Source of the DNA: a virus
Lineage: Duplodnaviria; Caudoviricetes
Reading direction: 5' to 3' (one strand)
Virus record (IMG/VR): IMGVR_UViG_3300022929_002740
Coordinates: 1 to 63,917 of that record
DNA length: 63,917 nt
Shown here: one piece after another, positions 12,593 through 63,917 of the stretch
How positions within the stretch are numbered: the first letter of the stretch is position 1
Layout of the letters: each line of letters opens with the position of its first letter
Translations under genes and position numbers: made by a program
The notes under the pieces: model-generated
Database searches by the model: none
What the model saw: only the letters and a program-made list of their open reading frames with translations
Told to the model about the DNA's origin: nothing

Positions 12593-12796
12593 TTAAGTTG
12601 CAGCAGGTCTTGCGTAAATTTTCTTTACACGTTTTGTTCTATTTGCATGCTCAATATTATGCACTTCACGCTGTTTTCTTAGTCGATTAAGGTGCTTTAG
12701 TGTTAGTCGTTGCTTGCGCACATCGTCTATTTTTCTATTTGCATAGTTGTTTTCTTCAGCGTCATAATACTCTTTTAAAAATTCTGCGTCACGCAT
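12593..12796 (-). CDS. Small basic protein of the head module (67 aa)
   Basis: ATG 12796 overlaps the portal stop (ATGCGTGA); contains RKQRLTLKHLNRLRKQRE. Confidence 0.7.
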   Translation of the reverse strand: MRDAEFLKEYYDAEENNYANRKIDDVRKQRLTLKHLNRLRKQREVHNIEHANRTKRVKKIYARPAAT

Positions 12797-14465
12797 TTTG
12801 GTCTCCTGTTGGTGCAGCTTCTGCACCACTTATCGGGCTAGCGCCTGATTCTGTATCGTCAGTGGGTGCATCTACATCCATATCAATGTCACTGCCATCC
12901 GGAACATCAAAGCCACGTACTCCTACGTTGCCTAATCCTGGCATTGAATCTCCGTCTGGAGTTACACCACTTTCGTTTTCTTCTTCCCACATACGCTCAT
13001 TCTTTAGAATCTCATCTTCAGTTAAGCCTAAATATTTCTCCATTAAGAAACGTCTGCTCATGTAGTTTACGCCTTCTAAGCTACCAAATACATTTGCTCT
13101 TGCGCTGTGGATTTCAATCTCTTTGTATTGACTAAAGCTCTGAGGCTCTACAAATTTTAAATCAAACAAACTTGCGTCAATACTCAAACCTTTGTTTTTC
13201 ATAAACAGTTTGAATTCTTTGTCCATGGTAGGTGCTAGTGCATTTTGTAGTCTCATACAGTATTGATTGAATCTGTATTCTTGAATAAATGCTGTGCCTA
13301 CTCTACCATCCACGTATGTTGCTGTTCCATCATCTGGACCTGTTGGCAAGTAACTACTAGGCACACGCAATGCTCTTAGCATTTTGTTTGTGAAATAACG
13401 CAAGTCATCAATTTGACCTAAGTTATCTCCGCCTGGTAACACTTCAACTTTACTACCTCTGCCTTCAGCAGTTTGTGCAAAGAAGTAGTCTTCCATGATG
13501 CTAAGTGGATTGTATGCGGCATCCATAATAGTTGTGCCGCCACCAGTTTTGTTTGGAATACGCTTTTGGTGAATTTCGTTTTTAACACGCTCAACAAAAC
13601 CCATAGCTTTGTTGGGAGGCATATTACCTACATCAACATAAAACACTCTGCGTTCCGGAGCACGTTGTACTCTATAAATGATAATACTGTCTTCAAGCAA
13701 TTCTTTTTGCTTGTATGTTTTGAAAATCGGATCTAAGATACTGCTACCAAACGGCCAGTTCATGTCCATGCCTTCTGTCATACCCAAGTGTACAACATGG
13801 CTTGCGTCTACTGTGTACTCTTGAATGTTGCCTGTGCCTGGATCATACTGTCCTGCTTGTTGTCCATAAGCACTTTTGTCCACTGCTTGTCCACGCATCA
13901 TACTGTTTACACTACTGTATGTTTGACTGTGTTGCACTGGTTGGCTTACAGTTTTTTCTTGCATGTTGAGATCAATGTTTTTAACAATGTACTGCTCAGG
14001 CTTTTTGCCTTTGGCTTCGTTTACAACTGCTTTGGTAACATCAACAGGATTTACATAATATAATTCCCATGTTTCTGGATCTCTAATAAAGAACTGATCT
14101 CCGTACTTGATGCTGTTTCTAAACATACGAAAGATACGTTTGTCCCAGTCTTGTAGGTTACACCATTGGTTAAGTGTTGACTCTAGTATCTTTGCTTCGC
14201 TTTCTGTAGCAGTTTCTTTGTATTCAATTCTAAAAGGAACACCTGTTACTTCATCTACTTGTGTACTGAATTCGCTAATAATGTCAAGAGCAGCGTTAAT
14301 CTCACTGTCCATGTCCATTTGATCATACTGTGCATAACGCTCAACTCTATTAGGTTGCCCACTGTAAACTTCAGGCAACCAGCTCTGAAAGCGGCTAGCA
14401 CTGCTAGGCTTCATACTATCAGTAGCTTGCCCGCCGTATGCTGTAAAATGTTTCTTCCAACTCAT
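12789..14465 (-). CDS. gp20: Portal protein (gp20-like)
   Basis: LLEDSIIIYRVQRAPERRVFYVDVGNMP, EDYFF, LPGGDNLGQIDD and ALRVPSS motifs. Confidence 0.97.
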   Translation of the reverse strand: MSWKKHFTAYGGQATDSMKPSSASRFQSWLPEVYSGQPNRVERYAQYDQMDMDSEINAALDIISEFSTQVDEVTGVPFRIEYKETATESEAKILESTLNQWCNLQDWDKRIFRMFRNSIKYGDQFFIRDPETWELYYVNPVDVTKAVVNEAKGKKPEQYIVKNIDLNMQEKTVSQPVQHSQTYSSVNSMMRGQAVDKSAYGQQAGQYDPGTGNIQEYTVDASHVVHLGMTEGMDMNWPFGSSILDPIFKTYKQKELLEDSIIIYRVQRAPERRVFYVDVGNMPPNKAMGFVERVKNEIHQKRIPNKTGGGTTIMDAAYNPLSIMEDYFFAQTAEGRGSKVEVLPGGDNLGQIDDLRYFTNKMLRALRVPSSYLPTGPDDGTATYVDGRVGTAFIQEYRFNQYCMRLQNALAPTMDKEFKLFMKNKGLSIDASLFDLKFVEPQSFSQYKEIEIHSARANVFGSLEGVNYMSRRFLMEKYLGLTEDEILKNERMWEEENESGVTPDGDSMPGLGNVGVRGFDVPDGSDIDMDVDAPTDDTESGASPISGAEAAPTGDQNA

Positions 14466-16449: not shown

Positions 16450-17292
16450 ATGAACAATCCACTAGCTAATCACTTTAGACAAAAAGAAATCTATGTCAGA
16501 CTGCCAACTCAAGGCAAATGGCTATCTAACAAGCCCAAACTCACCCAAGATGGCGAGATTGGTATTATGCCAATGACACTACAAGATGAAATACTACTGA
16601 GTATACCTGACAGCTTGTACAACGGAGAAAGTTTGTTTAAACTGATATCCAGTATTGTTCCTGACATCGCAGATCCTTACGAACTCAGTTTACCAGACTT
16701 TGATGTGATACTGCTAGCCAGTAGAGCTGCAACGTATGACAAAAAAATGAGTGTGGAAAGTTTTTGCACACACTGCAACGAACCAAACATGTATGAAATA
16801 GACTTGCCTAGTATTTTAAGCAAAGTTAGATTAATTGGGCAAGACAACATATTTGAAATAGACGGTTTGGTTTTTGAACTAAGACCTAATACAGTAGCCG
16901 CACTTAATACATTTCATATTAAAAATATACAAAGTACAAGTTTGCTGAGACAGTTACACAATTCATCTGATCAAGATAAACTTATACACAGTGAAGAATA
17001 TCAAAATAACTTATCTATAGTAAGTGCCGCAAATATTGCGTTGATTGCCGACGCTATTGTTTGTGTAACAACACCTGACGGAACACAAGTTAAAGACATG
17101 CAACACATCATCGAATATGTCAACAATGCCAAACGTCATGTGATTACAAAAATCGAAGAGAAAGCAAAAGCATTGAACAACAATGGACTAAACAAAACAT
17201 TTAATTTTACTTGTAGTCATGAAGAATGCTTAAAAGATTTTGAAGGTGCTATAGAATTTAACCCAGCTTTTTTTTTCAGAAATATATCCTAG
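16450..17292 (+). CDS. gp26: Baseplate hub assembly protein (gp26-like)
   Basis: YVRLPTQG, PMTLQDEILL and CxxC...CxxxxC zinc-like motifs; C-terminal FNPAFFF. Confidence 0.75.
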   Translation: MNNPLANHFRQKEIYVRLPTQGKWLSNKPKLTQDGEIGIMPMTLQDEILLSIPDSLYNGESLFKLISSIVPDIADPYELSLPDFDVILLASRAATYDKKMSVESFCTHCNEPNMYEIDLPSILSKVRLIGQDNIFEIDGLVFELRPNTVAALNTFHIKNIQSTSLLRQLHNSSDQDKLIHSEEYQNNLSIVSAANIALIADAIVCVTTPDGTQVKDMQHIIEYVNNAKRHVITKIEEKAKALNNNGLNKTFNFTCSHEECLKDFEGAIEFNPAFFFRNIS

Positions 17293-17534
17293 CAAGCATA
17301 GGTGATGCTAGTAAAGTTGAAGAAATTATCCAACGATACGAAAATGCACAAAAGAGATTGAGAAGTCAAGTCAACAGCATTGTGATATATTCACAAGGAA
17401 GTTTTACACTTCAAGAATTATACAAAATGCCAATGCATTACATCAAAGAGATCGAAGAAGCATTAATTGAAAAGAACGAAAAGGAAAAGCAGATGATAGA
17501 ACAAGCAAAGGGAAAGAATAGACAAACATTCTAA
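17268..17534 (+). CDS. gp51-like extension in the -1 frame, probably expressed by frameshift
   Basis: Open -1 frame QKYILASIGD...GSFTLQELYKMPMHYIKEIEEALIEKNEKE...QTF*, beginning at the T9 run with no ATG near its 5' end. Confidence 0.65.
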   Translation, partial: FFFQKYILASIGDASKVEEIIQRYENAQKRLRSQVNSIVIYSQGSFTLQELYKMPMHYIKEIEEALIEKNEKEKQMIEQAKGKNRQTF

Positions 17535-17542
17535 TGTTTCTT

Positions 17543-17925
17543 CGAAGAGCTAACGCTCATCGTCATACTCATTTCATTTCGTATGATATTTCTTTCTTAG
17601 ATATAATTTTTATTATGATTAGTTATTACCCTGTTTTCAGTCGCACTTAGCTTGTTACAGCCAAGTGCAAAAAAAAGCTAAAGGTCATTACCCCGCTCCA
17701 GATCGCTCCGTTATAGTGAAACCTAATATAGGCAGAGGCGGTCTTGCGCTACCCCTTTACTCACTGCTTAAGACGCAGAAACTCCAGATGCTATAACGTC
17801 AACATTACTGGATATCCGTGGGTTACAATGGCACAGTAGAGCCCACTCTTTTGGTTTGTTTTGCCTCAGCAAGATCCGACGGTACATATTACTACGCACA
17901 ATCTCAATGCTTTTGATTAGGAGGC
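17543..17925 (-). ncRNA. Candidate structured non-coding RNA downstream of the GIY-YIG gene
   Basis: About 400 nt with no ORF and many nested helices plus a pseudoknot. Stem mismatches resolve as G-U only on the minus strand. Confidence 0.6.
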
Positions 17926-17929
17926 TATA

Positions 17930-18358
17930 TTATGACTGGTGTCTATTAAGGGATTCTACGAGTGCCTTGGATCCGCCTACACGGACGTTTATGATGCCGT
18001 TGTAATATTCATCTGTTTCTAGCACTTTACGATCGAACTGTTCACGAGCTTCTAAGTAACTCATTTCACCTCTGCCTGTGCAGAAGTAAAGTATTTCTCT
18101 TGTAAAGTTCTCTGGGCCTAATTCTTTTACATCTGCGTTCAACTTGTCACTGCTTCCCCAATAGGTACGCCAGTCACTTTCTTTAGTTGATCGTCTCTTG
18201 TTCTTTTTGCCTTTGAGGGGGTTTTTAGTTACTTTAAATTGTGCCAGTTTTTTGCCAATGTACTTTTTGCCATTCGTGGTGTTGGTAATGAGATATACGA
18301 AACCTACGTATTCCTCTGGTATTTGTTCAATAAGTTTGCCTTGATAAGTCCATTGCAT
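17930..18358 (-). CDS. GIY-YIG family endonuclease, single domain
   Basis: GFVYLITNTTNGKKYIGKK, YWGSS, conserved Glu (LEAREQF) and YYN; likely start ATG 18358 (MQWTYQG). Confidence 0.85.
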   Translation of the reverse strand: MQWTYQGKLIEQIPEEYVGFVYLITNTTNGKKYIGKKLAQFKVTKNPLKGKKNKRRSTKESDWRTYWGSSDKLNADVKELGPENFTREILYFCTGRGEMSYLEAREQFDRKVLETDEYYNGIINVRVGGSKALVESLNRHQS

Positions 18359-18375
18359 GTTAGTATATAGCAACT

Positions 18376-18405
18376 AGTATATATGCCGAACTTAGCTAAT
18401 GTCAA
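18376..18405 (-). promoter_or_regulatory. Sigma70-like promoter of the GIY-YIG gene
   Basis: TTGACA (18400-18405), 18-nt spacer, TATACT (18376-18381). Confidence 0.55.
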
Positions 18406-18406
18406 C

Positions 18407-19099
18407 CTAAATATACCTCTTTTTTAAGATTTCCCAAGTTTGTTGATATCCTCGGTCAATTTGATAAAAATGTGTACTGGCTTGTGCCGCACTATAATCA
18501 TTACCGCCTGGGTAACAATTGTCTCCAAAGAAGATTGTTCTTGTGTCTGTATAGTGTTTTAGTACTTGACTTTTATCACAATCAATGGGGAAGATATCTA
18601 TACTGGTTTCTCCTGCTACTTGTGCTACAGCATCATCAAACATTTCATTGAACGCCAATGACACCAACTGTCTTCCGTGATGGTGTTGTTCCCATTCAGC
18701 ATATCTAGCACGTTGATCCCAGTCTGCATTTCTTCCTACAATACTAAAGTTTGCAGTACCAGTTCTTTGTTCAATATGGTTACCAGTTTTCTCTGGATAA
18801 TCTATACTGTCTACTTGTTGTTGTAAAAAGTCATATTGTTGTTGAGTGAGTGTCCATGGATTTTTATGGTGTTCTCGATCTCCGATAAACACATGATTGC
18901 CGCTACAATGATATACCCTTTCAAATGCATTAGTGAGCTTTAAACCAATCTGTTCTACAGTTTTTGGTCTGTCACTGCCTGTTACAATTACACATTGATG
19001 ATTGTTTACAAACTCCAGCATCACTTGTTCAAACTTAGGATCTATTTGTTTTCTTGGATCAGTTAATGTACCGTCTACATCAAAAAGGAACTTCGTCAT
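18407..19099 (-). CDS. HAD-IIB phosphomannomutase-like enzyme
   Basis: FDVDGTLT, VTGSD, IEQRTG..NFSIVGRN, SIDIFP and FFGD...GGNDY match the eukaryotic-type PMM signature. Confidence 0.85.
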   Translation of the reverse strand: MTKFLFDVDGTLTDPRKQIDPKFEQVMLEFVNNHQCVIVTGSDRPKTVEQIGLKLTNAFERVYHCSGNHVFIGDREHHKNPWTLTQQQYDFLQQQVDSIDYPEKTGNHIEQRTGTANFSIVGRNADWDQRARYAEWEQHHHGRQLVSLAFNEMFDDAVAQVAGETSIDIFPIDCDKSQVLKHYTDTRTIFFGDNCYPGGNDYSAAQASTHFYQIDRGYQQTWEILKKRYI

Positions 19100-63333: not shown

Positions 63334-63917
63334 AACCCAAACACGTTATACAACAAGTATCTGATATGAATATATGGCATGATGCAGTGTGGGTAAACAT
63401 TCAACAACAAACATTCTTTGTGCCTATATGGCGTAATGGTAACACAGAATTTATGCATCTAGCAGAGCAGTTTGGCTATACATTAGAAAAGTATTTTGAT
63501 CTTACTGGTTATACGGGTTATGCATTTGTGAGACATCCTAGTAAAAGACTAGCAGGACAAATATGGAGAGCAATGCAAAATCAACAGTTTAGTTTTGAAC
63601 AGTGTGTTGATTATATTATGCAGGGAGACTTGTCTAAAGATCCTCATTTTAGAACACAACAAAGTTTCTTACAAGACTATGATGTTGAATACCTAATAGA
63701 CTTAGACGATATGCAACCCACAGGACATCAACATATCGACGCAGTGATCAAACATATGAAACAGCCCAAAGAGATTGTACGCAGTGCAATTGATCAACAA
63801 CAACGACAAGAGATTCAACAGCAATTGGACAACACACAAATAATCAACAAGTATCAACAAGACTGTGATCTAGTAATGCCAACAGTTGGCCTAGTAGGTG
63901 TAGGAAATATTGGCAGT
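63330..63917 (+). CDS. Sulfotransferase-like domain followed by the start of a Rossmann fold (partial)
   Basis: Hand translation gives FVPIWRNGNT, AFVRHPSKR, DPHFRTQ, YQQD, then VGLVGVGNIGS at the window edge. Confidence 0.55.
   Translation, partial: MKPKHVIQQVSDMNIWHDAVWVNIQQQTFFVPIWRNGNTEFMHLAEQFGYTLEKYFDLTGYTGYAFVRHPSKRLAGQIWRAMQNQQFSFEQCVDYIMQGDLSKDPHFRTQQSFLQDYDVEYLIDLDDMQPTGHQHIDAVIKHMKQPKEIVRSAIDQQQRQEIQQQLDNTQIINKYQQDCDLVMPTVGLVGVGNIGS

Follow-up and report, generated by a model that had tools for sequence, protein, structure and literature searches.

Among the orphan structured RNAs described to date, GOLLD and ROOL are presented in a cryo-EM preprint as large and ornate (10.1101/2024.12.08.627333), the Polynucleobacter-1 motif (RF01718) has been classed as likely cis-regulatory (Weinberg et al. 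2010, PMC2864571), and a 2023 survey derived from IMG/VR 8,495 candidate structured RNA models of 29-151 nt, labelled 'DNAVirus_X' and otherwise unnamed (PMC10690425). Here we describe an RNA from a 63,917-nt stretch of virus DNA (IMG/VR record IMGVR_UViG_3300022929_002740, positions 1 to 63,917; below, the window), a 63.9-kb fragment of an uncultured T4-like phage that is about 15% complete as a virus record. On the minus strand, directly 3' of a GIY-YIG nuclease gene, positions 17622-17925 form a gene-sized, phage-specific, non-coding structured RNA, in which two pseudoknots lock together a 5' stem domain, the hairpin P3, the P4 arm and a three-way junction. We call it type 1, as sister phages carry a different RNA, type 2, in the same slot. 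The original prediction, made from the letters of this stretch, had placed here an RNA of about 400 nt and proposed that it works with the nuclease. The structured RNA was borne out; its size had to be reduced, with a core of about 300 nt (17622-17925) and the last ~45 nt standing apart.

Fold and strand of the type-1 RNA

From its 5' to its 3' end, the RNA comprises the following parts, PK1 and PK2 being the two pseudoknots:

17622-17925, minus: whole type-1 RNA, from P0 to the second GGUAAU word (102 distinct near-full copies)
17863-17925, minus: 5' domain, with P0 (17921-17925/17863-17867), P1 (17908-17911/17868-17871) and the variable hairpin P2 between them
17847-17862, minus: conserved A-rich single strand AAACAAACCAAAAGA, columns nearly invariant
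17818-17846, minus: hairpin P3 (17818-17822/17842-17846), conserved loop UGNGCYAUU
17777-17817, minus: P4 arm, with P4x (17814-17817/17777-17780), P4 outer (17808-17812/17783-17787) and P4 inner (17800-17803/17790-17793); the loop of the arm takes part in PK1
17766-17776, minus: hairpin P5, whose loop (17770-17774) pairs with the P6 loop (17741-17745) as PK2
17715-17765, minus: three-way junction, in which P8 (17760-17765/17715-17720) encloses P6 (17751-17756/17734-17739) and P7 (17729-17733/17721-17725)
17709-17713, minus: 3' strand of PK1, pairing with the P4 loop at 17794-17798
17677-17698, minus: hairpin P9, variable compensated stem, with word 1 GGUAAUGA (17685-17692) in or at the loop
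17669-17676, minus: run of eight U directly 3' of P9
17643-17668, minus: P10, a 10-bp hairpin (17643-17652/17659-17668) with loop GUAACA
17622-17642, minus: conserved tail GACUGAAAACAGGGUAAUAAC of invariant columns, with word 2 GGUAAUAA at 17623-17630

Support for this fold comes from counts over 61 distinct full-length homologues, with pairing partners slid by one to three columns as a control and 500 shuffles. When the fold was read from the alignment, 94.0% of the 4439 cells were paired, as compared with 33.9-43.2% for slid partners; both partners change in 30 of the 73 pairs, as against 5-9 pairs with slid partners, and none of the 500 shuffles reached the covariation score. The revised fold, which includes both pseudoknots, has 93.3% of cells paired and 27 of 69 pairs that change on both sides, with a slid range of up to 45%. 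Core cells hold 544 G-U against 65 A-C combinations, an excess that fixes the minus strand as the one that is read, and the fold z-score points the same way, with -2.82 on the minus strand (0 of 100 shuffles as good) versus -1.18 on the plus strand (13 of 100). The asymmetry between A-C and G-U mismatches that had been noticed by eye in the single sequence thus holds across the homologues. Seven of the eight helices drawn from that sequence were likewise confirmed by the homologue counts; the eighth, a closing stem 17699-17707/17868-17878, was lost, as it is paired in 58.7% of cells and scores 0.046 against a shuffled mean of 0.044, a value that 130 of the 500 shuffles reach.

At the 5' end, P0 changes on both sides in three of its five pairs (CG/GC/UA; UA/UG/CG), giving the variants GCCUC/GAGGC, CCCUC/GAGGG, GCUUC/GAAGC and CCCCC/GGGGG; P1 is mostly invariant, and compensation in P2 was judged by eye. 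P3 is paired in 100% of cells, with three of five pairs changing on both sides and a complete exchange of GUGGG/CCCAC for CCAGG/CCUGG in 5 of the 61 homologues. In the P4 arm, four of the five outer pairs covary (73.8% paired on the MAFFT alignment, in which the register is shifted in some rows), one inner pair occurs in three types (AU 21, CG 20, UA 13), and two of the four pairs of P4x, the closing helix of the arm, covary. The first pseudoknot had been predicted between the loop at 17791-17798 and positions 17709-17716; five of its pairs, 17794-17798 with 17709-17713, are formed in 100% of cells, and two of them covary (C-G to U-A in two homologues; G-C to U-G in four and to U-A in one). 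PK2 is 93.8% paired, two of its five pairs changing on both sides (UA 48/CG 13; UA 34/GC 23/GU 4) and two being invariant. A blind scan of all column pairs passed 466 of them, most through shared descent, and two antiparallel runs of adjacent pairs, P4x and PK2, were kept.

Within the three-way junction, three pairs of P8 (UA/CG, GC/AU, AU/UA/UG) and three of P7 covary; P6 is invariant and hence gives no covariation signal. Compensation in the stem of P9 was read by eye from folds of the distinct variants, and the U run that follows it counts 7-10 U in most variants, with UCUUUUGUC or UGUUCGGUC in its place in some. P10 is 100% paired, with one pair that alternates between UA (36) and CG (25) and four that vary through G-U alone, which fits the minus strand only. 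Both word sites read GGUAAU in 100 of the 102 distinct variants; locus L176 has GGAAAU at both sites, and the divergent L015 has neither word. A long-range pairing of ACC at 17853-17855 with GGU at 17628-17630, in word 2, was also considered and set aside, since these columns are invariant and can give no covariation signal. Taken together, the variable parts of the RNA are compensated stems, and its conserved core contains no free hypervariable segment of the kind expected of a guide.

Distribution and conservation

A blastn comparison of the gap sequence with the first 90 related nuclease loci found it in 29 of them, at 74-99% identity. One conserved exact 26-base pattern of the type-1 RNA matched 88 viral and 97 metagenome stretches, and had no match among 185,579 bacterial and archaeal species, each represented by one genome, so that by pattern matching the RNA appears, so far, to be phage-only. 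After removal of duplicates, 102 distinct near-full copies were left, and gene order around the type-1 copies is constant. In most of 13 pairwise comparisons the RNA core is at least as conserved as the best protein genes; against the relative L005, for instance, it is 96% identical, whereas the nuclease gene, gp46 and the portal gene reach 89%, 84% and 82%. GenBank phages gave no nucleotide match either to the element or to the surrounding 6 kb, and the nearest GenBank portal is 52-53% identical, which indicates that no close cultured relative is present in that collection.

A protein-coding explanation of this conservation was rejected, as 782 of the 850 gap runs in the alignment have a length not divisible by three. 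The element does contain stop-free stretches of 44-104 aa, in a frame that is not conserved, and tblastx on the element added nothing to the blastn matches. Searches with the 4227 models of Rfam 15, judged by the gathering score and repeated permissively up to E 10, gave 0 matches at the gathering score in the whole window, and the best hits within 17000-18900 scored 13.1-15.8 bits against cut-offs of 40-50. The window also holds no tRNA or tmRNA gene by ARAGORN and no Rfam tmRNA match. What the original prediction had called an unrecognised RNA family is therefore absent from Rfam 15, and its suggested check, the collection of homologous loci, gave covariation and no match to a catalogued family.

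The genomic setting

The RNA fills most of the space between two convergent transcription units, laid out as follows:

12789-14465, minus: portal gene
between the portal and baseplate hub genes, minus: 622-aa open reading frame (ORF)
16450-17292, plus: baseplate hub gene
17358-17534, plus: 58-aa ORF after the hub gene
17535-17929: ORF-free gap between the 58-aa ORF and the GIY-YIG gene
17543-17586, plus: hairpin pair 17563-17586 and 17543-17562, with a T-rich run at 17587-17600 coming next on the plus strand
17587-17621: AT-rich spacer beyond the conserved RNA, variable in length and sequence
17930-18358, minus: GIY-YIG nuclease gene, 142 aa from the ATG at 18358 (listed ORF of 147 aa from the TTG at 18373)
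18376-18405, minus: sigma-70-like promoter match TTGACA-18-TATACT upstream of the nuclease gene (11 of 12 positions, a match to the consensus only)
beyond the GIY-YIG gene, minus: gene for a phosphomannomutase-like HAD protein
beyond the HAD gene, minus: gp46/SbcC gene

At 395 nt, the gap 17535-17929 is the largest stretch in the window without an ORF of at least 50 aa in any of the six frames. The runner-up (301 nt, 63401-63701) lies close to the contig end and has no Rfam match at the gathering score. The GC content is 0.465 at 17700-17899, as against 0.32-0.345 at 17400-17699 and 0.345-0.355 at 18200-18499. The gap begins at the stop codon of the GIY-YIG ORF, and P0 starts 5 nt past that stop codon, or inside the last codons of the gene in some relatives. 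The ORF scan and the GC counts thus agree with the earlier description of the locus as the largest gap, with a GC-richer core, opening at the nuclease stop, and the RNA does adjoin the nuclease gene as claimed.

The two hairpins at the far side of the gap, counted in the original prediction as part of the RNA, lie outside its core. Those at 17563-17586 and 17547-17558 each covary among the 61 homologues, and since a T-rich run comes next on the plus strand, they are more likely to end the convergent operon; judged by this arrangement, 17543-17586 is probably the terminator of the hub gene and the 58-aa ORF. A terminator consensus scan made no call at 17543-17586. Slightly upstream, the hub ORF ends at 17292 soon after a run of nine T (17271-17279), and the conserved 58-aa ORF follows 65 nt on. 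Another observation concerns the 80 viral contigs L002-L081, 32 of which stop within 400 nt past the nuclease stop codon; in the contigs that continue, 1.5-3.5 kb of variable small genes can separate the RNA from the hub gene, and the region 3' of the nuclease gene looks like the boundary of a hypervariable island that breaks assemblies.

A second RNA type in the same slot

Nuclease loci that lack the type-1 RNA are not empty. In 35 of 36 such loci, the 600 nt past the nuclease stop form a single similarity cluster, which corresponds to a conserved, non-coding, folded element of about 330-470 nt that cannot be aligned with type 1. It begins with GGUUGGCGGGCC and has the core GUAGGUUGGGAAAGGUCAGAGCCC; it is absent from the window and can be exemplified by one sister-phage locus:

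L019:4457-4840: type-2 RNA, from the sister phages L019-L081

The type-2 RNA has no Rfam match, including a search of L019 4300-5200 at E ≤10. Its core pattern has at least 120 viral matches. Of these, 113 include enough DNA on the upstream side to be judged, and 112 of them have the nuclease there. The exception, L215 (6700-7100), is a divergent relative of the type-2 core with no GIY-YIG gene among five neighbouring ORFs, on a contig that holds none of the window's neighbouring genes. Types 1 and 2 have a 3' module in common, in which a hairpin with the loop GUAACA precedes GACUGAA. When the type-1 version of this module (P10) was used as a small covariance model, it located the type-2 3' hairpin at the corresponding position of 13 type-2 loci, each match being marginal (E 0.011-0.63 over 441 kb, with two unrelated matches in the same E range).

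Several further observations were made on type-2 loci. Some variants contain an internal pair of near-identical boxes of 10-13 nt. About 480-560 nt past the nuclease stop, the motif (A/T)ATAAATA, which we take to resemble a T4 late promoter, is followed by AAGGA and an ATG before the first gene of the island. The core pattern also occurs in L298-L300 (72, 335 and 153 kb), which are filed under metagenome-assembled genomes of Crocinitomicaceae and Neomarinimicrobiota; these are probably phage contigs that were binned with bacteria.

The nuclease and its possible expression with the RNA

The neighbouring protein matches PF19835 (E 1.7e-36, 125.6 bits) over residues 8-128 of 147 and profile positions 1-123 of 123, as well as phrog_447 (E 3.3e-40), and by its catalytic domain is classified as a SegE-type GIY-YIG nuclease. 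Some 19 residues remain after this domain, and there is no other Pfam match, in line with the earlier view of a protein consisting of a catalytic domain only. The full architecture of Seg or I-TevI homing endonucleases was accordingly rejected, as no C-terminal DNA-binding domain follows. A match to TIGR01453 (27.7 bits) stays under the cut-off of 56 and covers profile positions 2-86 of 215 only, and a search of PDB sequences gave no match at E <0.9, on which ground kinship to T4 endonuclease II or I-TevI by sequence was dismissed. The protein contains a basic KGKKNKRR stretch, and its relatives in viral contigs number more than 574. Its start, ATG-CAA-TGG, is kept in relatives, and the TTGACA promoter that had been proposed on the nuclease strand is present as a consensus match (11 of 12 positions, 18405-18376). 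Two TATACT boxes lie directly upstream of the start in the window, and in nearly all relatives the sequence before it (18340-18405) is A/T-rich, with no purine run like a Shine-Dalgarno sequence.

No separate promoter was found for the RNA. Thirteen RNA-library runs hold 46-60% of the sampled sequence words of a 1.1-kb query that spans the gap, the nuclease gene and flanks. In four of these runs that were examined, contigs from three RNA-library studies (X4 record 11, X1 record 1 and X6 record 17) link the nuclease gene with the RNA and end at 17647, 17658 or 17659, with no loose end, at a place through which the DNA contigs of relatives continue (17647-17659). This hints weakly at a joint transcript of nuclease gene and RNA that has its end near P10. 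On the hub side, the four runs had no contig over 16974-17639, a missing cover that carries no weight.

Is the RNA tied to the nuclease?

Given this arrangement, the question arises whether the RNA and the nuclease work together. The nuclease lies directly upstream in all 77 type-1 copies that can be judged, and three more copies begin at a contig edge. Because all loci lie inside one fully syntenic phage lineage, this adjacency is indistinguishable from shared descent; the conserved linkage that had been foreseen is thus present (77/77 for type 1, 112/113 for type 2), and descent explains it equally well. In Melnitz, the closest named phage, a 75%-identical nuclease lies behind nrdB and the next annotated coding sequence comes 149 nt later, a spacing that, judged by the gene annotation and not by a model of the element, would leave no room for such an RNA after the nuclease. 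When RNA types are mapped onto a tree of 184 distinct nuclease proteins, 3 changes of type are counted, as compared with 60-67 in the five shuffles inspected of 200. RNA-type labels are shared by relatives on the tree, which shows inheritance and not co-evolution.

Two direct pairings between the RNA and the nuclease message were tried and rejected. The P3 loop CCAUUG could pair with the nuclease start CAAUGG, and stays unchanged where the second codon is ATT, ACT, CAT, CAG or GAA. The twin words could pair with UCAUUACC, the stretch of nuclease mRNA that encodes YLITN (18284-18291); across 93 loci the codons drift (Ile ATT/ATA/ATC; Thr ACC/ACT/ACA) and the words stay, and L176, with its GGAAAU words, retains ATT ACA in this stretch. 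In sum, the working tie between nuclease and RNA that the original prediction put forward finds no support in the synteny of the lineage, the Melnitz locus, L215, the lack of a free guide or the failed pairings, and a functional pair is possible but unsupported.

A nuclease partnership of this kind would have the RNA bind the domain-poor GIY-YIG protein and give it target recognition or a scaffold, as a ribonucleoprotein nuclease. We regard this as very unlikely, even though the adjacency (77/77 and 112/113), a protein with a basic KGKKNKRR stretch and no DNA-binding tail, a variable AT-rich tail after a conserved scaffold, and RNA-library contigs that join gene and RNA (which fit a single transcript and do not show one) all speak for it. 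Against these points, Melnitz keeps a 75%-identical nuclease with no RNA-sized room before the next gene, L215 keeps a related RNA without the nuclease, the variable parts of the RNA are compensated stems instead of free guides, the RNA type has switched three times on the nuclease tree with no loss of the protein, and a literature search gave no paper on a GIY-YIG-associated RNA. The bolder version, a single machine in which the knotted RNA supplies the recognition that the tail-less protein lacks and the RNA types are alternative specificities, has in our view very little chance of being correct; if true, it would be the first RNA-dependent GIY-YIG nuclease. The nuclease could instead follow a homing logic, as a free-standing enzyme that sits beside its own target, just as T4 SegB sits in a tRNA cluster. 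In such a case the RNA gene would be the cleavage target in competing phages, the resident allele would be immune and the alternative RNA types would be rival alleles, an account that explains the adjacency and leaves the function of the RNA aside. Constant adjacency, two unalignable RNA types in one slot of otherwise syntenic phages, at least three changes of RNA type on the tree of 184 proteins and the 32 of 80 contigs that break within 400 nt past the nuclease stop, suggestive of strain-level variation, would all fit. We still consider homing improbable, as the protein has no DNA-binding domain beyond the catalytic one, is present in every type-1 and type-2 locus seen except L215, with no presence/absence polymorphism, and is as conserved as core genes, which suits a domesticated enzyme better than a selfish one.

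A proposed stand-alone RNA with twin words

Our preferred reading, which we hold tentatively and, taken whole with the fold, at somewhat less than an even chance, is that of a stand-alone RNA that displays two GGUAAU words to one reader. The start of P0 at the stop codon and the failure to find a promoter of its own suggest that the RNA is made as a 3' extension of the nuclease transcript. It would then act alone, in trans, and not as a guide of the nuclease, whose gene would be a constant neighbour by descent. The knotted core could serve as a rigid platform that shows GGUAAU twice, with one copy on the P9 hairpin and the other in the single strand that forms the tail beyond P10. One reader with two equal sites would bind both words, the simplest candidate being an RNA-binding protein, from phage or host, that is dimeric or has tandem domains; the RNA would thereby act as a scaffold or decoy. 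What suggests a trans-acting RNA of defined shape with two equal sites is the knotted core, together with the duplicated word and the many unpaired bases that never vary. Several points weigh against this proposal. The twin-word reader, like any binding of the words, is a guess; L176 is the one locus in which both words change in concert, and word 1 may there have moved into a stem; P9 and the U run resemble a terminator, and termination at this point would leave word 2 off the transcript; the perfect adjacency to the nuclease (77/77, and 112/113 for type 2) is also what one would expect of a functional pair; PK2 and P4x were chosen after the fact from a noisy scan of 466 pairs; and the RNA-library contigs give neither strand, ends nor level, with DNA carry-over as a possible source.

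The terminator-like look of P9 leads to the main rival, a conditional terminator or insulator resembling a riboswitch, in which the core would sense a ligand or protein and set the choice between a stop at P9 and its U run and read-through, which would carry the transcript past P10 and word 2 and, as antisense RNA, into the late baseplate-hub genes on the convergent side. The hairpin followed by 7-10 U in most variants, its place directly 3' of the PK1 strand, like an expression platform after an aptamer, and the position of the element at the convergent junction of the gp46/nuclease unit and the hub operon agree with this idea, as do RNA-library contigs that extend 10-22 nt past the U run. 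We nevertheless think it unlikely, since no minus-strand gene follows the element in type-1 loci, some variants lack the U run, P10 and the tail beyond it rank with the best conserved parts and are under selection as RNA, the sole candidate for an antiterminator pairing (the closing stem drawn in the original prediction) fails, no other was found, and the consensus terminator scan calls nothing at P9 and the U run. Alternatively, the folded transcript might hybridise with the adjacent AT-rich DNA and prime replication. Persistent RNA-DNA hybrids prime replication in the case of ColE1 RNA II and the T4 ori transcripts, and at this locus the conserved RNA is closely followed by a tract (17587-17621) that is AT-rich and variable in sequence, with the RNA-library contigs stopping shortly before it. 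T4 ori transcripts, though, are not known to depend on an elaborate fold, no repeats, DnaA-type boxes or iterons were seen, and the tract doubles as spacer and terminator region of two convergent units, so that a primer or origin RNA seems most doubtful. A ribozyme that cleaves or processes itself, or the decayed core of a group I-like intron beside an endonuclease gene, seems very unlikely: ribozymes do typically have a double-pseudoknot core of this kind, rich in unpaired bases that never vary, GIY-YIG genes often lie in group I introns and TIGR01453 matches weakly (27.7 bits), yet no Rfam ribozyme or intron model matches at E ≤10, there are no flanking exons, the downstream gene being convergent, and no conserved cleavage-site signature was recognised. 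A group I intron proper was rejected on the same grounds, with no RF00028 match at E ≤10 and a convergent downstream gene that excludes a 3' exon.

Whichever account is correct, the strong conservation, the two pseudoknots and the repeated word suggest that the RNA has a precise molecular task, for which no catalogue offers an explanation. The lineage is common in ocean metagenome assemblies, and its ~300-nt RNA is at least as conserved as its best proteins; the different large RNA in the slot of the sister phages provides a natural swap experiment on the roles of phage RNAs. Should the twin-word reader prove to be a host factor, it would reveal a new way for phages to take over cells; should it prove to be the nuclease, this would be an RNA-dependent enzyme of a new kind.

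Comparison with known systems

The literature that we searched held no GIY-YIG-associated or marine T4-like phage RNA of this kind, and the supplements of PMC10690425 may hold partial models. The 'DNAVirus_X' models stem from the same source collection and the same class of method, covariation in phage intergenic regions; they differ in being unnamed and at most 151 nt long, and the main text of that survey makes no mention of GIY-YIG. Pieces of this abundant element may be among them.

Like Polynucleobacter-1, the type-1 RNA is an orphan structured RNA from aquatic metagenomes. The RF01718 model (cut-off 37 bits) nevertheless finds nothing in the window at E ≤10, nothing at the gathering score in L019, L040, L076, L038, L025, L052 and L092 (the Melnitz locus included), nothing at E ≤10 in L019 4300-5200 and nothing at E ≤1 in five further records. 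Membership was rejected on this basis, and any relation is at most distant. With HEARO/omega RNA of IscB it shares the arrangement of a structured RNA adjoining a nuclease gene, but the neighbour here is a GIY-YIG catalytic domain instead of the HNH/RuvC protein IscB, the conserved part of the RNA has no free guide segment, and the nuclease is also found without an RNA-sized gap; as the neighbour matches PF19835 only and the RNA has no Rfam match, assignment to this system was rejected as well.

The type-1 RNA also resembles GOLLD and ROOL which, as described in the preprint, are likewise multi-pseudoknotted, highly conserved, phage-carried non-coding RNAs with no known partner. The type-1 RNA is much smaller (~300 nt), matches neither family in Rfam and lies at the 3' end of a nuclease gene instead of near tRNAs, of which the window has none. 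We rate it as a new family among the orphan structured RNAs of phages.

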